A stretch of DNA of 32,000 nt, taken from positions 3,030,001 through 3,062,000 of the forward strand of contig NZ_LN885086.1 of assembly GCF_001458695.1 (NCBI RefSeq). The letters are read 5' to 3'. The position numbers were made by a program, and so were the translations under genes. This DNA comes from Candidatus Nitrospira inopinata (GTDB taxonomy: Bacteria > Nitrospirota > Nitrospiria > Nitrospirales > Nitrospiraceae). The notes under the pieces are model-generated. The model saw only the letters and a list, made by a program, of their open reading frames with translations, was not told the origin of the DNA and searched no databases. Shown one piece after another: positions 20,635 through 28,976 of the stretch. Within the stretch, counting starts at the first letter, position 1, and every line of letters begins with the position of its first letter.

Positions 20635-21399
20635 TTACGCCGCCGCGTTGACCTGTCGATTCTTGAGCAACAGGGCCTTTCGCGTCTTCATCACGTTGCG
20701 CTGCTCCTTGGTCGGAAAATGGATTCCCCGTTTCGTGGCGGGGAATCGCGCTTCAAATCGCTCGATCACCGCCAGCGCGCCGGCTCCGTCTCCCGAGCGG
20801 GCCAAGAGCCTCGTCAAGCGAAGATAGGCTGGAACCAACAGGAGGAGATGGCGGATTTCCTTGGCCTCGTCGATGACGCACCGATAGCCGGAAACCGATA
20901 TGGCCTGGTTGATGCTTTCATAACAGACCGCCTCCAGCATGCGAACCACGACGCGATCCGTCTCGGCGCTGATGCTGGTTTCCCATTGTCCGTTCACCAA
21001 GGCGCGCAGCTCTTCCGCCGACAACTGGATCCAGCCCTTTTTGGCGTTGGCTCGAAGCCGGTGCACGACGGATCGCGCCTCCAACCATGCTCCATACAGC
21101 CCGACCAGCGCGCCGAGACAGGGAATCGGCCGTCGGCATTTTTCCGGCAACGGCGAAAACCCCTTTTTTACGATATAGGACGGCAGAAACACCCGCCCGT
21201 GCGCGGCCGAGCACACCTCGCACACGTCGTCGTCTTCCGGGACGACGTAGAGGTACATGCGGATACCGGAGCGATCGAAAATATCAATGGCCAGAATTCG
21301 TCCCGCCATGATCTGCATTTGATAGAACTGCCACACGACCAGCAGCCCCAGGATGGCCACCAGGTAGATCGTGACGTCGGGAAATTCGAGATCGAGCAT
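20635..21399 (-). CDS. Hypothetical membrane-anchored protein with a CxxC...CxxxxC motif
   Basis: 254 aa with an N-terminal TM helix (VTIYLVAILGLLVVWQFYQMQIM), then DDDVCEVCSAAHGRVF...PEKCRRPIPC, then a helical C-terminal region. I recognise no family. Confidence 0.6.
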   Translation of the reverse strand: MLDLEFPDVTIYLVAILGLLVVWQFYQMQIMAGRILAIDIFDRSGIRMYLYVVPEDDDVCEVCSAAHGRVFLPSYIVKKGFSPLPEKCRRPIPCLGALVGLYGAWLEARSVVHRLRANAKKGWIQLSAEELRALVNGQWETSISAETDRVVVRMLEAVCYESINQAISVSGYRCVIDEAKEIRHLLLLVPAYLRLTRLLARSGDGAGALAVIERFEARFPATKRGIHFPTKEQRNVMKTRKALLLKNRQVNAAA

Positions 21400-21820
21400 A
21401 GAGCCCCGGCTTCTGTTGCGGATCGCTGTCCGAGAATACCAGCCCTCTTTTCTCTCGCCTAGAAATTTTTGTTCCCGCGCTCGTTAAAGAACCGCCTTGT
21501 CTGATGAATTTTACCGAGCAAAAGCGATGCCCCTTTTGTGGGATCCTTTTCAGAAATTGGTTCAACCGTTCACTGTTTCAGCAAGCTCCCCTCTTTCGGC
21601 AAGGCAAAACCGGGAAAGTAGCGCAGGTTCTCGCGCGCCGCGCGCATCGCATCCACGTGCTCGGCAACGTCACTCCCGACTCTATCCCTGCGAGGAGGCA
21701 AGGCGCTTCCTTCACCCAGAGTCTCCGACAAAATTTTTCTTTGTATTTTCTCTGCGGAATTTGGTAGATAGTTGACCCGGCGCCTGCTTGACGAGTGGTG
21801 AGGGAGGGGGAGGTCCTATT

Positions 21821-21879: not shown

Positions 21880-22833
21880 ATGCAGAGGTTTCGTGTGCTC
21901 ACATTAACGCTCGGGCTTGGCGTCCTCTTCGGAGCCAGCGGATGTATCACGATGCCGGCATCTGCCGGGGCAAAGGTTCATGACGTCACGTTCACGGCGA
22001 CCGAATCGGAAATCGTCATCGACGGCAACGGGACGAAGTACAAGGCCTGGACGTTTAACGGTCAAATGCCGGGCCCGGTTGTTCGGGTCACGCAGGGCGA
22101 TACCGTCAACTTCACCTTGATCGGCCACAAGGACAACGCTTTTCCGCATTCAATGGACTTCCATGCGGCCGAGCTCGACTTCTTGAAAAACTACCACAAG
22201 ACGGTCGGACCGGGCGAGACACATAAATTCTCCTTCGTGGCGAAGAAACCCGGCGTGTTTTTCTACCATTGCGGCGCGAGCCCCATGATCCAGCACGTCG
22301 CCCGCGGCATGTTCGGCGCCATCATCGTCGACCCCAAAGATTCGAGCGTGTGGCCCAAAGCCGATCGAGAATTCGTGTTGGTGCAGTCCGAGCTGTGGAA
22401 GAATCCTGACAACGTCCAGGCCATGTTTGACCGGAAGTGGGACCATACGGTCTTCAACGGCGGCATCTTTAAATACCATCCGTTCTTTCCCGGCGGAGAA
22501 CCGCTGGAAGTCAAGGTCGGCGAGCGGGTACGAATCTACTTTGTGAACGCCGGCCCCAATGAATTCTCGGCGCTCCATCCCATCGCGGAAATCTGGGACG
22601 CCGTCTATGAAAGCGGCAATCCTTCAAACAAGTTCATCGGAGTTCAGACTTATGTCGTCGGGCCAGGCAGCGCGGCCACCTTCGACATGATCGCCGATGA
22701 GCCGGGAGCCTATCCCGTCGTGACCCACTCCTTGACCGGGGCCCTCCGGGGTGCCATCGCGGTGGTGGTCGCCAACAAGAATCCCAAGGACTATAAAGGT
22801 CAGTTGATGCCAAACACCCCTTGGAACCCGTAA
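21880..22833 (+). CDS. nirK: Copper-containing nitrite reductase (NO-forming), probable lipoprotein
   Basis: 317 aa with a lipobox-like signal LGVLFGASGC. Cu-ligand motifs: HSMDFHAAE (T1 His, catalytic Asp, T2 His), YHCGASPMIQHVARGM (T2 His, T1 Cys, His, Met), SALHPIAEIWDAVYESG (active-site His) and VVTHSL (third T2 His). AGGGAGG RBS. Confidence 0.88.
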   Translation: MQRFRVLTLTLGLGVLFGASGCITMPASAGAKVHDVTFTATESEIVIDGNGTKYKAWTFNGQMPGPVVRVTQGDTVNFTLIGHKDNAFPHSMDFHAAELDFLKNYHKTVGPGETHKFSFVAKKPGVFFYHCGASPMIQHVARGMFGAIIVDPKDSSVWPKADREFVLVQSELWKNPDNVQAMFDRKWDHTVFNGGIFKYHPFFPGGEPLEVKVGERVRIYFVNAGPNEFSALHPIAEIWDAVYESGNPSNKFIGVQTYVVGPGSAATFDMIADEPGAYPVVTHSLTGALRGAIAVVVANKNPKDYKGQLMPNTPWNP

Positions 22834-22891
22834 CCAGTGATCGGGGGAGAAAAATTCGTCAGTTCATCACTCACACAAAGGAGCAGACGAT

Positions 22892-23335
22892 ATGAAATGG
22901 AGCAAGAAAATAGTATGCGCGACCGTCGCGGCCGCATCTTTCTGGGCCTTTAGTGGCGCCGCATCTTATGCCGCGGAGCAATCGCTCTACGAGCGACTGG
23001 GCGGAGTGGGTGCCATCCAGGCCGTCGTCACCAAGTTCATCAACAACGTGGGAGGAGATGCTCGGATCAACGGCTATTTCAAAAACGCCGACCTGAAACA
23101 GCTCAACAAACACCTCGTGAATCAGGTTTGCCAAGCCACCGGCGGGCCTTGCACCTATGAAGGTCGGGATATGAAAACGACCCATAAGGGCATGAAAATA
23201 ACGACGGCCGCGTTCAACGCCCTGGTGGAAGATCTGGTTGCCGCATTGGATACCTTCAACGTGCCGGAGAAAGAAAAGGGTGAACTGCTCGCGATCCTGG
23301 GACCGATGAAAGCGGATATCGTCGAAGTCCCTTAA
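22892..23335 (+). CDS. Group-I truncated hemoglobin (trHbN-like) with N-terminal Sec-type signal peptide
   Basis: [27 protein letters not shown] then [22 protein letters not shown]...[26 protein letters not shown], which is colinear with 2-on-2 globins including the proximal His. AAGGAG RBS. Confidence 0.85.
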
Positions 23336-23382
23336 TAGGGGTAGGAGAGGGCTAAAAGCCATTTCGCTGGGTGGAAGTTCAT

Positions 23383-23412
23383 GGGGGCAAAACCTGAAGG
23401 GGTTTTGCCCCC
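23383..23412 (+). terminator. Hairpin downstream of the truncated hemoglobin gene
   Basis: GGGGGCAAAACC (23383-23394), loop TGAAGG, GGTTTTGCCCCC (23401-23412): a perfect 12-bp stem. The downstream T-tract is weak (TGTGAATTTCT). Confidence 0.5.
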
Positions 23413-23600
23413 TGTGAATTTCTGAACCGATCGTTTCATGAACCCCAAGCCGCCTCGATTTCATCGTTCCCTACGGAACACCAACCCTGCAACTTCAAAC
23501 AACATCGTGTTATCATAGGTGCGCGACCTGCGCCTCTAACCAAGCGGCGCAAAGAAGTGTCCGGTCATCACATGAGTAGTCATTATCAAGAGGAGGAGTC

Positions 23601-24059
23601 ATGAAAGGGAAGTATTGGGCCGTCGCAGCGTGCAGCCTCGTCACCGTCGCCTTGTGGAGTACAGTCAGTTGGTCAGGCCCCGAGTCCGACCCGTTGAAGC
23701 CGCGTGTCCCTGATGCCGAGCGAGGTGAGGCGCGAAAAATGAAAAGTCCCCTCACCGTGACACCGGACGTGCTCGCCAAGGGACAGGAGCTCTACGAGGG
23801 GAAAGGCACCTGCGCGAACTGTCACGGCCAGACCGGAGCCGGGGACGGGCCAGGGGGAATGTTGCTGACACCCGGTCCCCGCAACTTTACAAACTGTAAG
23901 TTCCACAAAAAACGGAACGATGGAGAGTTGTTCTGGGTCATCAAGAACGGAAGCCCGGGCACCGGCATGCCGGCTCTTGTGAAGGGAGGCATTCTGACCG
24001 AGGAAGAGGCATGGGCGATCGTCGCGTATGAGCGGACCTTCTGCAAGGACACGGAATAA
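23601..24059 (+). CDS. Secreted class-I c-type cytochrome
   Basis: 152 aa with a signal peptide (MKGKYWAVAACSLVTVALWSTVSWS), a single CANCH heme-binding motif and a distal Met in GSPGTGMPAL. GAGGAGG RBS. Confidence 0.85.
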   Translation: MKGKYWAVAACSLVTVALWSTVSWSGPESDPLKPRVPDAERGEARKMKSPLTVTPDVLAKGQELYEGKGTCANCHGQTGAGDGPGGMLLTPGPRNFTNCKFHKKRNDGELFWVIKNGSPGTGMPALVKGGILTEEEAWAIVAYERTFCKDTE

Positions 24060-24089
24060 CCGATAAAGAATTCTCGCGATCCCCCCAGC

Positions 24090-24130
24090 GAGCTGCCGGT
24101 CAACAATAGCGACCGGCAGCTCGTCTTTTT
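24090..24130 (+). terminator. Rho-independent terminator after the cytochrome c gene
   Basis: GAGCTGCCGGTC (24090-24101), 9-nt loop, GACCGGCAGCTC (24111-24122): a perfect 12-bp stem followed by GTCTTTTT. Confidence 0.8.
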
Positions 24131-24253: not shown

Positions 24254-25615
24254 ATGAATCGGGGCAAGGATTGCGCAGTGAACTCTACGACTATCCTGCT
24301 CATCTCGGAGAATACCGACACCATACGGCTTCTTGAAACCACCGCTCCTGCGTCAAGCACCATCCTGACAGCCCTGACCATCGTCGACGGGATCCGTCTC
24401 TGGCAAGCAGCCGGCCCGACTTTGGTCATTTGCGAAGGAACTCCTCAGTCCGTTAAGCCGGTGCTGGACTTCGTGCGGCACACGGTCCCACCCGTCCCTG
24501 TTCTCGTCATCGGCGAGCGCCAGTCGATCAAAGACGCCGTCGATATCATGCGGGGCGGGGCGGCCGATTATCTTGCAAAACCGGTTTCCTGTGAAGAGCT
24601 GCAAACCGCCGTCTCTCGATTGCTTTCGCAATCGCTCGTCAATCTCCCATCTCCTCCGCAAGACCGCTTCGCCCAGATTGTCAGCATGTCTCCACAGATG
24701 AATTTAATCAAACAACTCGCGAAAGAAGTGGCCGCGACCGACGCGACCGTTCTGATTACCGGAGAAAGCGGAACCGGGAAGGAACTCTTCGCGCAGGCCA
24801 TCCATGCCGCAAGTTCCCGGGCAAGAGGGCCTCTGATCGCCCTTAATTGCGCCGGCATTCCCGAGCCGCTGTTGGAAGCGGAACTGTTCGGCTACCAGCA
24901 AGGAGCCTTCACCGACGCCAAACACTCCAAGCCGGGTCGTTTCCAACTGGCCGAGGGCGGCACCCTTTTTTTAGATGAAATCGGAGAGATGAGCGCGACG
25001 GCTCAAGCCAAACTCCTGCGCGTCCTGGAGGACCATGTCGTCGATCCCTTGGGAGCCACCAGAGGCCACCAGGTGGACATTCGCATCATCGCCGCGACAA
25101 ACGAAGATCTCCCGGCTCATATCAAAGCAGGACGGTTCCGACTTGATCTCTATTACCGGCTCAATGTCTATCAACTGCGCATCCCCCCCCTTCGCGAGCG
25201 ACCGGAGGATATTGAAGCCATTCTCATGGTCTTTCTGGAGCGAGCGCGAAGAGAACGGGGCTGTCCCATTCGGACAATCGCTCCCGACGCCTTGGCCCTG
25301 CTGAAACGTCACGACTGGCCAGGCAACGTTCGCGAGCTGCACAATGTGGTGGAATGGCTCACCATCACCTGTAAACATCCGACCATTCAGCCGGAACATC
25401 TTCCGCCATCAATTCGGGCCATGCCGGTTCAGAGCGGATCGCAGAGTGAACGCAGACATTCTCTCCTGGACCTAGGCCTGTCGCTCGAAGAGTTGGAAAA
25501 ACGACTGCTTGAAGAAGCGTTGGAAAGGGCGGGAGGCAATGTGTCGGAAGCCGCCCGTCTTTTGAAGATCAGTCGCAATACGCTTCGTTATCGAATGGCA
25601 AAGCACCGCCTTTGA
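24254..25615 (+). CDS. Sigma-54-dependent transcriptional activator (NtrC family) with atypical receiver domain
   Basis: 453 aa: a receiver-like N-terminus, an AAA+ core (Walker A GESGTGKE, GAFTDA loop, Walker B GGTLFLDEIGE, RLNVYQLRIPPLRERPEDI) and a C-terminal Fis-type HTH (GNVSEAARLLKISRNTLRYRM). A GTG at 24278 with AAGGA upstream is an alternative start. Confidence 0.9.
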   Translation: MNRGKDCAVNSTTILLISENTDTIRLLETTAPASSTILTALTIVDGIRLWQAAGPTLVICEGTPQSVKPVLDFVRHTVPPVPVLVIGERQSIKDAVDIMRGGAADYLAKPVSCEELQTAVSRLLSQSLVNLPSPPQDRFAQIVSMSPQMNLIKQLAKEVAATDATVLITGESGTGKELFAQAIHAASSRARGPLIALNCAGIPEPLLEAELFGYQQGAFTDAKHSKPGRFQLAEGGTLFLDEIGEMSATAQAKLLRVLEDHVVDPLGATRGHQVDIRIIAATNEDLPAHIKAGRFRLDLYYRLNVYQLRIPPLRERPEDIEAILMVFLERARRERGCPIRTIAPDALALLKRHDWPGNVRELHNVVEWLTITCKHPTIQPEHLPPSIRAMPVQSGSQSERRHSLLDLGLSLEELEKRLLEEALERAGGNVSEAARLLKISRNTLRYRMAKHRL

Positions 25616-25755: not shown

Positions 25756-27039
25756 GTGATACCAATGCCCAAACGAACTATTCCAATTGCTCGCCTTAAG
25801 GTGGGCATGTACATCTCGGGGCTTGATCGCTCCTGGCTTCACACCCCGTTTCTCCGTCATAGTTTTCCGATCAAGAGCGAGCAGGAAATCGCGGCGTTGC
25901 GAAAATCCGGCGTCGCCACGGTCGTCATCGACACCGACTTGGGCAGGGACGTGCAGGATGAACACACGGCGTCCAAAACCGTTCCCCCTCCCCAACCAGA
26001 TCCTGCACCCCATGTCACCGACACCACCGCCGCTGACGACCAGCCCACCCAAGCCCCAAGGGAGGCGGAGCCTTTGCCGGCGCGACCGTCTCCCCTTCAA
26101 CTGGCCGCCCACTTCTCGGAAGCAAGGCAGCAGCGCGAGCAATGGCTTGCCCGGGCGAAGGCCCTTTTTGAAAAGACACGCGCAACGGATATCATCGAGG
26201 CTCGTGACGCTCAAGCCATTGTTGATGATGTCCTGAAAACCGTACTCGAGCGACAAGCCGCATGCCTCGCCGTCCTGGGTCTCGGACAACTTGATGCAAC
26301 CTTGCAAGAACATGGGCTTACCGTATGCACTCTCGCCCTCATTCTCGGTAAATCCCTCAATTTCTCAGACGACCGGCTGAACCAACTCGGCCTGGGGGCC
26401 CTGCTGCATGACATCGGTCTGACCAAACTGCCACGCCACATGATCAAACGATCAAAGACCATGACTCCCGCTCAACAGGCGCTCTATCAAACTCACACGG
26501 AAGAAGGCCTTAGAATCTTGCAAAAAAGCTGGCTTGCGGCACCAGATCTTCTCTTGATGATCAGCCATCACCATCAATTTGAAAAGCCGACCGAGACCGC
26601 CCCCGACTCGGCGTCCGACACCGACCCCGTCAACCTGATCAGCGTCATCGACCAATACGACGAACTCCTGAGCGGTCAAACAGGCCTCCCGCCCATGTCG
26701 TCGAGCCAAGCCTTGTCTCACCTCTATCAGCGCTCTCAGACTCACGCCGAATGGCGGACTCTTGTCTCATCGCTGATCAGGGTCATCGGCATCTATCCAC
26801 TGTACAGCGTCGTTTCCCTGACCAGTGACGAGGTGGGCGTCGTCGCCGCCATCACCCCAGGAAAGGCTCACCTGCCCTACCTGTATCTCTGTCGAGACAA
26901 ATTCCAGCGACCTTGCATTCCACCCAAACCGCTCGACTTAGCCCAAGAACCTGAAGGCAGCCGCCGGGTGAAAGAACTGCTGGATCCTCGGCGGTGCGGC
27001 GTCAATATCGAACAGGTGCTCGAACAGGCTGCGGCATGA
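25756..27039 (+). CDS. DUF3391 plus HD-GYP-like domain protein (GYP motif absent)
   Basis: The N-terminus IPIARLKVGMYISGLDRSWLHTPFL is typical of DUF3391. It is followed by a Pro/Thr/Asp-rich linker and an HD domain with LGALLHDIGLTKLP, ISHHHQFEK and VIDQYDELLSG. An ATG at 25765 is an alternative start. Confidence 0.8.
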   Translation: MIPMPKRTIPIARLKVGMYISGLDRSWLHTPFLRHSFPIKSEQEIAALRKSGVATVVIDTDLGRDVQDEHTASKTVPPPQPDPAPHVTDTTAADDQPTQAPREAEPLPARPSPLQLAAHFSEARQQREQWLARAKALFEKTRATDIIEARDAQAIVDDVLKTVLERQAACLAVLGLGQLDATLQEHGLTVCTLALILGKSLNFSDDRLNQLGLGALLHDIGLTKLPRHMIKRSKTMTPAQQALYQTHTEEGLRILQKSWLAAPDLLLMISHHHQFEKPTETAPDSASDTDPVNLISVIDQYDELLSGQTGLPPMSSSQALSHLYQRSQTHAEWRTLVSSLIRVIGIYPLYSVVSLTSDEVGVVAAITPGKAHLPYLYLCRDKFQRPCIPPKPLDLAQEPEGSRRVKELLDPRRCGVNIEQVLEQAAA

Positions 27040-28976
27040 CCATTCCTCTCCCCTCGACTCCTTTTCCTGATGATCTCCCTCACCGTCCCAACATCACCTG
27101 GCTACCGACCCATCACGACCTCTTTCTGGTCATGGAAGCTTCGGAAGACGCTCTCTTTGTCACGGACCAAGACGGCAGTATTCTCTTCCTCAATCCCGCC
27201 GCCCGGCGGTTGATCGGAAGCAATCAGAACGCATTAGGGTATAACCTGCACGACCTCTTTCACCGTGTTGCACGTCATGGGGAACCTAGCGAGGCGTGCC
27301 CTTTGCAGGTTGCCGTCTCTTCCGGGCAAGTCACCGTGCTGCCGCCTTACCGATGGACCAGGCCCGATGGCGCCGCTCTGGATCTGTCCGCCACCTACTG
27401 GCCTCGCCGAAAGGGGATGACCGTGATCGGAGCCCTGGCGGTGATGCACAATCTGACCGAGCAACAAGAAATGCAGCGGGACATTCAACGAGTCGCCCGT
27501 CTCGCCGAGGACGCCCCCAATCCCATTGCCGAATTCGACGAAAGCGGTACGATGCTCTACGCCAACACCGCCACGATCGAGTTGATGAACGCAGCCGGCA
27601 ACCACGGCGATTCTATCCTCTCGATCTTTCCACCCCAGCTTGAGCAAATCATCCTCTCGTGCCTCGATGGCAATCAGCCCAACGGACGGTACGAGCATGC
27701 TCTTGATCATATGGTGCTTGCCTGGACTTTTTTCCCCATCGGCGATCTCCGGCAGGTTCGAGCCTACGGAGTGGACATCACCGCCAGCGTGGCGCTCCGC
27801 AAGGCAAAGGAATCAGCCGAAGAATCGGCCAAAGCCAAGGGTCTCTTCCTCGCCACCATGAGCCATGAGCTGCGGACGCCGATGAACGGCGTCTTGGGTT
27901 GCACCAGGCTGCTGCAAGACACCGCCCTCACACCTCAGCAACAAGAATTGATCGTCACCATGCAACGGTCGGCCGAAGCCCTGCTCGCGTTGGTCAACGA
28001 CATCCTCGACTTCTCGAAAATCGAGGCGGGCAAGATGACGCTTGAAGTGGCCGACGTCGATCTCCGTTCGCTGGTCAAGGATGTGATTACACTGGTCTCG
28101 GAATTGGCCAGACAAAAGGGATTGACGCTGACAAGCGAGGTTCATGAAAACGTGCCTCCTCTCTTCCGTGGAGATCCGGTGCGGCTCAGACAGATTCTCC
28201 TCAATCTGGTCGGCAACGCCATTAAGTTCACCGAACGGGGGGAAGTCGGCATCACCGTCGGCATGGATCCGGCCTCCTCTCCAGAGGCGGAGCACGTCGT
28301 CATCAGGTGGACCATACAGGACACCGGCATCGGGATGACCAAAGAGCAATTGGACCGACTGTTTCAAGCCTATGTCCAAGCCGACGCTTCGATGACACGG
28401 CGCTTCGGCGGAACAGGCTTGGGCCTGATGATTTGCCGCCAACTCGTCACCATGATGGGCGGAACCATTTCCGTGGAGAGCGAGCCGGGGAAGGGAAGCA
28501 CCTTTACCTACACCACGAATCTGTTGCCGGCCATTCAGCGCACGACTCCAGTTTCTGCAGATATCGACTCGACCATTCAAACCGCAGCCTCACAACTGCC
28601 GCGGCGGATCTTGGTCGTTGACGACAACGAAATCAACCAGGTCGTTGCCTGCAAATTCCTTCAAAAACTCGGCTATCAAGTCGAGGTTGCGCGGAACGGA
28701 AACGACGCGATCGAATCATTGGCACGGGCCAACTATGACGCCGTCCTCATGGATTGCGAAATGCCCGTTATGGACGGATACGAAGCCGCGCGGTGTATCA
28801 GAAAAAAAGAGGCGGAACAGAGGTCTCTTCGTCTCCCCATCATCGCCATGACGGGAAACGTATCCGTTGAGGATGCCCGGCAATGCAAGGAAGCCGGCAT
28901 GGACGAGGTGGTCACCAAGCCGGTGTCGTTGACCTCCCTCCGGGCGGCTCTCGATCACTTGTTGCGCACCACTTAA
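27036..28976 (+). CDS. Cytoplasmic PAS-PAS hybrid sensor histidine kinase with C-terminal receiver
   Basis: No TM segment. It has two PAS-like regions, H-box MSHELRTPMNGV, N-box LLNLVGNAIKFT, G-boxes DTGIGM and GGTGLGLMICRQLV, and a receiver ILVVDDNEINQ...VLMDCEMPVMDG...KP. I prefer the start ATG at 27036, which overlaps the upstream stop as ATGA; the track start is 26994. Confidence 0.9.
   Translation: MTIPLPSTPFPDDLPHRPNITWLPTHHDLFLVMEASEDALFVTDQDGSILFLNPAARRLIGSNQNALGYNLHDLFHRVARHGEPSEACPLQVAVSSGQVTVLPPYRWTRPDGAALDLSATYWPRRKGMTVIGALAVMHNLTEQQEMQRDIQRVARLAEDAPNPIAEFDESGTMLYANTATIELMNAAGNHGDSILSIFPPQLEQIILSCLDGNQPNGRYEHALDHMVLAWTFFPIGDLRQVRAYGVDITASVALRKAKESAEESAKAKGLFLATMSHELRTPMNGVLGCTRLLQDTALTPQQQELIVTMQRSAEALLALVNDILDFSKIEAGKMTLEVADVDLRSLVKDVITLVSELARQKGLTLTSEVHENVPPLFRGDPVRLRQILLNLVGNAIKFTERGEVGITVGMDPASSPEAEHVVIRWTIQDTGIGMTKEQLDRLFQAYVQADASMTRRFGGTGLGLMICRQLVTMMGGTISVESEPGKGSTFTYTTNLLPAIQRTTPVSADIDSTIQTAASQLPRRILVVDDNEINQVVACKFLQKLGYQVEVARNGNDAIESLARANYDAVLMDCEMPVMDGYEAARCIRKKEAEQRSLRLPIIAMTGNVSVEDARQCKEAGMDEVVTKPVSLTSLRAALDHLLRTT

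Follow-up and report, generated by a model that had tools for sequence, protein, structure and literature searches.

Group N of the truncated haemoglobins (TrHb) splits into TrHbN-1 and TrHbN-2 (PMC11904497). TrHbN-1 proteins carry Tyr at position B10 and Gln at E7/E11 and have a high O2 affinity suiting enzymatic activity; TrHbN-2 proteins are defined by hydrophobic residues at B10, E7, E11 and G8, preferably with Phe at CD1, and are predicted to have low O2 affinity (PMC11904497). SbHbN of Shewanella benthica (PDB 7TT9, 8UGZ, 8TLS), the first TrHbN-2 member studied, shows no reversible O2 binding, has a Cys at E16 and reacts with peroxides, and a role in the balance of reactive oxygen species (ROS) was suggested for it (PMC11904497). 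For the truncated haemoglobin of Tetrahymena, the title of Igarashi et al. 2011 presents the hydrogen-bond network of B10 Tyr and E7-E11 Gln as critical both to stable O2 binding and to the detoxification of nitric oxide (NO) (cited in PMC11904497). Here, we investigated three genes encoding a copper nitrite reductase (NirK), a TrHbN-2 globin with a predicted export signal and a mono-haem cytochrome c in a 32,000-nt stretch of the Candidatus Nitrospira inopinata genome (contig NZ_LN885086.1, positions 3,030,001 to 3,062,000; called the window, and numbered from its first nucleotide). The linkage of nirK and the globin gene is a conserved property of one Nitrospira clade, and we tentatively read the cluster as a periplasmic set of proteins for the handling of NO.

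N. inopinata is a complete nitrifier (comammox) that produces and then consumes NO, the level of which stays about tenfold below that of ammonia-oxidising bacteria, and it possesses neither NO reductases nor nitrosocyanin (PMC6478695). Kits et al. 2019 reported one nirK, CUQ68118.1, found by proteomics that NirK is the second most abundant protein during oxic growth on ammonia, and stated that the enzyme oxidising NO in this organism is not identified (PMC6478695). Their accession directly precedes that of the globin, CUQ68119.1. A haemoglobin is not mentioned in their paper (PMC6478695), and Mundinger et al. 2019 described the role of NirK in nitrite-oxidising Nitrospira as undetermined (PMC6606698); the text supplements of both studies have no 'globin' entry. 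A preprint on the comparative genomics of comammox bacteria lists 'TrHb1' among nitrosative-stress proteins, without context (10.1101/138586). Our literature search found no paper on a nirK-globin-cytochrome c cluster or on export of the globin. This agrees with an earlier interpretation made from the window alone (called the sequence-only reading), which knew of no characterised system of this composition. As far as we found, the individual components are of known kinds and their conserved combination in Nitrospira is apparently undescribed. The three open reading frames (ORFs), each preceded by a Shine-Dalgarno sequence, lie exactly where the sequence-only reading had placed them, with 58 nt between the first two:

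21880-22833, + strand: nirK, copper nitrite reductase precursor of the lipoprotein type, 317 aa, CUQ68118.1 (Pfam, PDB alignment)
22892-23335, + strand: group-N truncated haemoglobin of the TrHbN-2 type, predicted to be exported, 147 aa, CUQ68119.1
23601-24059, + strand: mono-haem class I cytochrome c, predicted to be exported and related to cytochrome 579, 152 aa

Using the window proteins, 86 loci were scanned by tblastn, 80 of them obtained by scanning GTDB with one genome for each species. The order nirK-globin-cytochrome c was found in 34 of the 86 loci, and in 33 of these 34 the gene of a sigma-54 activator lies downstream; in the full-order loci, NirK is 80-99% and the globin 69-97% identical. 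Four loci (L037-L040; NirK 71-75% identical) contain nirK and the globin gene without the cytochrome c gene, and a locus of 1,250 bp (L006) covers only the globin gene and the start of the cytochrome c gene. Three more distant Nitrospirales (L087-L089, including Nitrospira sp. Kam-Ns4a) have a NirK that is 67-73% identical, and in these neither a globin nor a cytochrome c gene follows nirK (0/3) and a crp/fnr-type regulator gene directly precedes it (3/3); the regulatory wiring of nirK differs between Nitrospirales clades. One of the three also carries an Rrf2-family regulator gene and a DUF2061 gene. The most distant globins (33-64% identical), encoded at 44 loci (L043-L086), have no nirK within 6 kb, and their hosts are Thiobacillus, Acidobacteriota, Bacteroidota, Planctomycetota and others, among them one named Nitrospira (L070). 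Conservation of the three-gene neighbourhood, which the sequence-only reading had offered as one of several checks and the lack of which it would have taken as a refutation, was seen in 34 loci of the Nitrospira clade and is missing in the distant Nitrospirales and at the 44 distant-globin loci. Because the gene order recurs in 34 loci, mostly from Nitrospira genomes taken one per species, the trio arrangement is not due to chance. The linkage of nirK and the globin gene is real, conserved and restricted to one Nitrospira clade.

The same comparison bears on the simplest alternatives, namely that the globin is a low-affinity periplasmic buffer or carrier of O2, or that its adjacency to nirK is functionally meaningless. 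Synteny over many species with a fixed short spacer argues against both. An O2 buffer, moreover, would find no obvious periplasmic O2 consumer within the cluster, and the lack of reversible O2 binding by SbHbN (PMC11904497) speaks against such a function as well. We regard this pair of explanations as highly improbable.

The following elements lie upstream of nirK, between the genes and after the cytochrome c gene:

21730-21799, + strand: conserved promoter/operator block upstream of nirK, from the alignment of 15 Nitrospira nirK upstream regions
22834-22891, + strand: nirK-globin spacer, 58 nt, with the Shine-Dalgarno sequence AGGAG and free of terminators
23377-23419, + strand: strong hairpin behind the globin gene with a weak U tail (-30.5 kcal/mol, z -6.3)
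23487-23516, + strand: promoter-like element ahead of the cytochrome c gene, reading CTGCAA-N18-TATCAT; the TG at 23508-23509 makes the -10 an extended one
24088-24124, + strand: intrinsic terminator behind the cytochrome c gene, its 14-bp stem leading into UCUUUUU (-29.3 kcal/mol, z -6.7)

The nirK-globin spacer has no significant structure (fold z -0.2) and is 49-68 nt long in 32 loci, which makes co-transcription of nirK and the globin gene likely, as had been supposed from the window alone. The two hairpins flanking the cytochrome c gene, noticed in that interpretation too, proved far stronger than shuffled controls. The hairpin behind the globin gene keeps its position in 17 aligned loci despite differing sequence; probably it terminates nirK-globin transcription in part or stabilises the 3' end of that transcript. 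When the globin-cytochrome c intergenic regions are aligned (17 loci), conservation is highest in the almost invariant TCGTGTTATCAT, which lies about 85 nt upstream of where the cytochrome c gene starts and which we interpret as a putative extended -10 promoter belonging to this gene. With a hairpin and a promoter-like element between them, the globin and cytochrome c genes do not behave as parts of a single three-gene operon; the cytochrome c is therefore probably made from a separate transcript, and only nirK-globin is operon-like. The likely transcription units are nirK-globin, cytochrome c and the sigma-54 activator.

Upstream of nirK, the ~70-nt block is the most conserved non-coding stretch in the 15 aligned regions. 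It comprises an A/T-rich stretch, a -35-like TTGTAT (21741-21746) and an extended -10-like TGG-TAGATA (21762-21770), and would plausibly serve as the UP / -35 / extended -10 promoter of nirK. Two copies of TTGAC spaced by N11 (21772-21776 and 21788-21792), just downstream of the putative -10, may form an operator for some regulator. A sigma-70 scan gave nothing at threshold upstream of nirK, and a structured 5' untranslated region or riboswitch before nirK was considered and rejected (fold z +0.18; nothing in Rfam up to E 1). That the syntenic activator might control the cluster through sigma-54 gained no support from the window, which has no TGGCAC-N5-TTGC-like site upstream of nirK, globin or cytochrome c genes. 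In 12 other Nitrospira loci a sigma-54-like TGGTAYRYATTGTGC occurs 220-250 nt upstream of nirK (among them L004:4776, L015:4745, L019:4742, L020:4751, L024:4746, L028:4763, L029:4758, L030:4732, L031:4735 and L042:540); N. inopinata and its closest relatives do not have it. Three loci have a similar TGGTATTATRTSTGC some 90 nt upstream of their cytochrome c gene, where the aligned window sequence is TGTTATCATAGGTGC and the GG is lost.

NirK consists of two cupredoxin domains (Pfam Cu-oxidase_3 and Cu-oxidase_2) and aligns over its full length to solved NirKs. It reaches 201.8 bits against TIGR02376, under the equivalog cut-off of 296.3; this model under-scores the NirK of the Nitrospira clade. 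The closest solved NirK is PDB 4kns (E 4.8e-103, 348 bits), which we take to be that of Nitrosomonas europaea, and because of this close match the predicted NirK function is supported despite the TIGR02376 shortfall. The type 1 Cu ligands H90, C131, H139 and M144 and the type 2 Cu ligands H95, H130 and H283 are identical in the aligned 4kns and Geobacillus 3wi9 sequences; the same alignment shows intact catalytic residues Asp93 (motif H-S-M-D-F-H) and His233 (L-H-P-I), from which nitrite reduction is predicted. Together with the lipobox LFGASG-C22, conserved across homologues, this bears out the lipoprotein-type enzyme with intact copper and catalytic residues described in the sequence-only reading. 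The N. europaea enzyme differs from the Nitrospira NirK in that the latter is, by its lipobox, a lipoprotein. N. europaea is a nitrifier too, and its nirK presumably also clusters with c-type cytochrome genes (ncgABC-nirK). That cluster holds the multicopper oxidase gene ncgA together with ncgB and ncgC and is not known to contain a globin gene; gene order and partners differ from those in Nitrospira. A precedent for a lipid-anchored copper nitrite reductase is AniA of Neisseria, an outer-membrane lipoprotein (PDB 1KBV; match E 2.6e-46), which is a distant homologue without an adjacent globin.

All three proteins begin with a positive N-terminus followed by a hydrophobic stretch, and a twin-arginine motif is found in none of them. 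Sequence rules, conservation pattern and hydropathy identify a signal peptide or lipobox in each; NirK, the globin and the cytochrome c are thus very probably exported, as had been proposed for all three. In the globin, a positive N-terminus and a hydrophobic core lead to the cleavage motif SYA↓AE, which delimits a predicted signal peptide of about residues 1-27, and the homologues have the small-x-small motifs SFA↓AD or SFA↓AE. Among 19 Nitrospira homologues, residues 1-28 are 44% identical versus 83% in the mature part. There is no alternative start codon upstream of residue 39, and a start at this residue would lose the conserved SLYERLGG helix. The signal of the cytochrome c resembles that of the globin (N-terminal, Sec-type). 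A precedent for a predicted periplasmic TrHb working with c-type cytochromes comes from cable bacteria, in which a periplasmic pentahaem cytochrome fused to truncated haemoglobin domains was proposed to be a periplasmic O2 reductase (PMC11976967); this system differs in being a fusion protein, in having no NirK and in belonging to another lineage.

The globin is identical in sequence to CUQ68119.1 / WP_062487190.1, annotated as 'group I truncated hemoglobin', and matches Pfam PF01152 (Bac_globin) with 61 bits; its best PDB matches are all group 1 (N) truncated haemoglobins. An AlphaFold model computed from a 41-sequence alignment reached a mean confidence (pLDDT) of 87.8, with values of about 97 from residue 31 on and disorder before it. 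A model from 20 close homologues (pLDDT 51) was discarded. The accepted model superimposes on M. tuberculosis HbN with a root-mean-square deviation (rmsd) of 0.8 Å over 116 residues, and the top 25 Foldseek matches are all group-N TrHbs (best rmsd 0.8-1.1 Å), so that the globin is, as modelled, a true group-N truncated haemoglobin with the 2-on-2 fold. Distal residues were assigned by ungapped alignment to the Tetrahymena TrHbN (reference positions Tyr25 B10, Gln46 E7, Gln50 E11 and His73 F8). They are Ile50 (B10), Leu71 (E7) and Leu75 (E11), with His98 as the proximal His F8, Val112 at G8 and Phe63 at CD1, and the apolar B10/E7/E11 pattern is kept among Nitrospira orthologues. By residue comparison, as distinct from a tree, the globin thus has the TrHbN-2 set of residues and lacks the Tyr B10 and Gln E11 network of TrHbN-1: its sequence places it with the TrHbN-2 type and not with the NO dioxygenase type of HbN. 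Position E10 is His74 in N. inopinata and Leu in many orthologues, and bis-histidyl hexacoordination by His E10 as in cyanobacterial GlbN was rejected as a conserved feature.

With M. tuberculosis HbN and the Tetrahymena TrHbN the globin shares the 2-on-2 fold, 31-32% identity and the proximal His F8, and Phe B9, Phe CD1 and Val G8 are common to them when the alignment is read by eye. It differs where these proteins have Tyr B10 and Gln E11 (and in Tetrahymena also Gln E7), for which the window globin has Ile, Leu and Leu. Both are, to our knowledge, cytoplasmic or cell-associated and without a Sec signal. SbHbN has hydrophobic residues at B10, E7 and E11, its Cys E16 falls on Cys80 of the window globin, and the TM score between the model and SbHbN is 0.94. 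The differences are that its PDB chain starts at the globin domain, with no presequence in the alignment, that it has Tyr CD1, His B13 and, at the EF-loop site where the window globin has a Cys, Gln58, and that no linkage to nirK has been reported for it; the window globin has Phe CD1, an export signal and the pair Cys80 (E16) / Cys87.

A HMMER scan over 1.84 billion representatives returned 5017 relatives, and residue statistics were taken from 348 globin domains in the best 150 of these. The commonest pocket combines an aliphatic B10 (Val in 72, Leu in 45 and Ile in 22 domains) with Leu E7 and Leu E11, and His F8 is present in 323 of the 348 domains. The two cysteines covary: both occur in 109 domains, Cys80 alone in 19 and Cys87 without Cys80 in none (0/348). 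Of 41 single-domain members, 40 have an export signal (22 a lipobox, 18 of the signal-peptidase-I type); Tyr B10 occurs in 0/41, Leu E11 in 40/41, both Cys in 37/41 and His F8 in 41/41. The best PDB match for a profile of this exported subfamily is again SbHbN (E 4.8e-31). By these signatures, the globin belongs to a large uncharacterised set of TrHbN-2 proteins with predicted export and a covarying Cys pair. In the 50%-identity library, many of the closest relatives are giants built of 2-12 tandem TrHbN-like domains (P0121-P0159), for example P0122 with 1882 aa and 12 globin stretches and P0132 with 1386 aa and 9.

These pocket residues bear directly on the function put forward in the sequence-only reading, which had likened the globin to M. 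tuberculosis HbN. The group-N fold and the proximal His are present, and Ile B10, Leu E7 and Leu E11 go against the likeness. The corresponding explanation is that the globin is a true periplasmic NO dioxygenase, re-reduced by the cytochrome c, which detoxifies the NO made by NirK. In favour of it, the globin has the group-N fold and an intact proximal His, is predicted to share a compartment with an NO producer and lies next to a potential reductant. Any oxy-haem reacts fast with NO, which is a further point in its favour, and N. inopinata consumes NO aerobically without an NO reductase (PMC6478695). We nevertheless consider it unlikely: the hydrogen-bond network of B10 Tyr and E7-E11 Gln is missing, a low O2 affinity is predicted for TrHbN-2 proteins and reversible O2 binding is lacking in SbHbN (PMC11904497), the cytochrome c gene probably forms a transcription unit of its own and does not occur at four nirK-globin loci, and reducing power would be wasted in an energy-limited nitrifier. 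A shunt from nitrite via NO to nitrate, also suggested in the sequence-only reading, would cost O2 and two electrons per nitrite, when NXR yields two; it can therefore hardly be a catabolic route and would make sense only as detoxification or regulation.

The cytochrome c matches Pfam PF13442 and PF00034 and has a single C71-A-N-C74-H75 (CANCH) motif together with Met123, both invariant in 32 homologues, as in class I cytochromes. Against NF033864, the model of Leptospirillum cytochrome 579, it scores 130.4 bits (E 5.8e-38), below the cut-off of 280, so that we class it by sequence as a relative of cytochrome 579 and not as an equivalog. It also matches chain B of the Kuenenia cytochrome 6H5L (6h5l_B, E 5.3e-17), presumably part of an NO-binding cytochrome c complex. 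The Kuenenia protein differs in having two cytochrome domains. An extra pair, Cys99/Cys148, is present in 32/32 homologues compared across those positions, and its conservation, like that of Cys80/Cys87 in the globin, fits with an oxidising compartment.

The relationship to cytochrome 579, a high-potential cytochrome of Nitrospirota, is one of the points in favour of a further explanation, in which the cluster oxidises NO to nitrite (an NO-oxidising, NOO, module). The oxidation, the missing step of comammox ammonia oxidation, would be carried out by reverse-running NirK, by the ferric globin via a ferric nitrosyl, or by both; the globin would capture and concentrate NO derived from HAO, and the electron would pass to the cytochrome c and thereby enter the respiratory chain. 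That the comammox NOO is not identified and nitrosocyanin is absent (PMC6478695) would leave room for such a module, the abundance of NirK, second among all proteins when ammonia is oxidised under oxic conditions, is more in line with a main-flux enzyme than with a regulator, and the apolar pocket is suited to NO binding. Kits et al., however, judged the kinetics of reverse NirK unfavourable (PMC6478695). The cluster is moreover found in more than 30 Nitrospira genomes taken one per species, not all of which need be comammox, and the cytochrome c gene is probably not co-transcribed with nirK-globin. We hold the proposal to be very unlikely.

The reading that we prefer, tentatively and with somewhat less than even confidence, is that the cluster is a clade-conserved periplasmic NO-handling set, with the globin as a binder, buffer or scavenger of NO. 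NirK and the globin would be made together and both act outside the cytoplasmic membrane, with the cytochrome c as the one-electron partner of NirK, either as donor when nitrite is reduced to NO or as acceptor if NirK runs in reverse. The globin would acquire haem b in the periplasm and be stapled by a Cys80-Cys87 disulfide. As the network of Tyr B10 and Gln E11 is missing, it is expected to be a poor holder of O2 and a likely binder of NO. It would bind NO arising nearby, from NirK and in comammox also from HAO, and this buffering or scavenging would protect periplasmic metalloenzymes; if the globin also converted this NO, with O2 to nitrate or via a ferric nitrosyl to nitrite, that would be a secondary activity. 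In denitrifiers, the periplasmic haem protein cytochrome c' (CycP), the distal pocket of which is hydrophobic, is considered an NO buffer. By analogy, the globin would be functionally nearer to this protein than to M. tuberculosis HbN: it shares the predicted periplasmic location, an apolar pocket disfavouring O2 and the co-occurrence with nitrite reduction. The comparison serves as a working analogy only, since cytochrome c' is a four-helix bundle with c-type haem and has no sequence or structural homology to the globin.

Several points weigh against this assignment. The NO role of the globin is read from its sequence and its predicted structure, and its export from sequence rules. An apolar pocket does not exclude NO dioxygenation, and His E10 could allow bis-His coordination in the N. 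inopinata protein. Some Nitrospirales have nirK without an adjacent globin gene, and NirK therefore does not need the globin; outside Nitrospirota, the globin subfamily never lies beside nirK in the scanned loci. A different setting recurs in the Thiobacillus-group globin loci (L043, L046, L047, L050, L054, L056 and others), where two neighbour families are found in 8 loci each. A scan of one representative per family indicates that the first is an ECF sigma factor and the second an anti-sigma factor of the ChrR type (Cupin_7). Such a pairing is typical of regulons for oxidative or singlet-oxygen envelope stress, and the core role of the subfamily may therefore be in general envelope oxidative stress.

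According to the alternative that follows from this context, the globin is a general haem protein of envelope oxidative stress, acting on peroxide or other ROS with NO not its substrate, and was recruited beside nirK to protect an abundant copper enzyme or is merely co-regulated with it. Besides the Thiobacillus-group neighbours, five loci of other Nitrospira (L032-L036) are in keeping with it, in which a paralogous globin, a lipoprotein by its signal, is encoded after a sigma-54 regulator, and in one case a CHASE3 kinase, without nirK. The peroxide reactivity of SbHbN and its suggested role in ROS balance point in the same direction (PMC11904497), but the peroxide chemistry of SbHbN needs Tyr CD1 (PMC11904497), and the window globin has Phe63 at this position. 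The tight coupling to nirK (49-68 nt in 32 loci) likewise argues for a NirK-related role, and we rate a general stress function as quite unlikely. The paralogue itself is a second Nitrospira TrHbN-2 globin (MTRTSIMLAAALFMTVGC...) whose gene follows that of a receiver/sigma-54 activator; in L033 (1885-6378), a CHASE3-HAMP histidine kinase gene precedes those of the sigma-54 regulator and the lipoprotein globin. Its promoter, TTGACA-N17-CATATA, is sigma-70-like, and Nitrospira sp. SG-bin2 holds both globins, the paralogue (L032) and the nirK-linked one (L039).

An NO-handling role of the globin would touch on two published questions, the role of NirK in nitrite-oxidising and comammox Nitrospira and the enzyme that removes or oxidises NO in comammox (PMC6606698, PMC6478695). 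N. inopinata has only one nirK, expressed at a very high level and likely co-transcribed with the gene of an overlooked haem protein with an export signal. This globin is a concrete candidate for the tight control of free NO in the organism; such control bears on NO and N2O emissions from nitrification. Many TrHbN-2 globins are predicted to be exported and have the conserved Cys pair, in a clade with one studied member. If the NOO explanation were true, exported, disulfide-stapled TrHbN-2 globins would form a widespread, unrecognised class of extracytoplasmic NO-binding proteins.

Four further genes surround the cluster:

20635-21399, - strand: 254-aa ORF between an HD-domain gene and nirK, weak phage SPP1 gp7-like hit (E 0.0036)
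24254-25615, + strand: sigma-54-dependent activator with a degenerate receiver domain (Pfam; syntenic)
25756-27039: DUF3391 and HD-GYP protein, probably a cyclic di-GMP phosphodiesterase, following the cluster
26994-28976: PAS-HisKA-HATPase-receiver hybrid kinase, its frame overlapping the HD-GYP ORF by 46 nt

The 254-aa ORF has otherwise no family match and is found in only four closest relatives (L009-L012). The activator is linked to the cluster through its conserved position alone. Its receiver domain has the acidic pocket SEN and, at the predicted phospho-acceptor site LVICEG, Glu or Cys for Asp, and the protein may work without phosphorylation. The HD-GYP and hybrid kinase neighbours hint at a signalling link to the cluster, and HD-GYP homologues lie downstream of it in several other Nitrospira loci.

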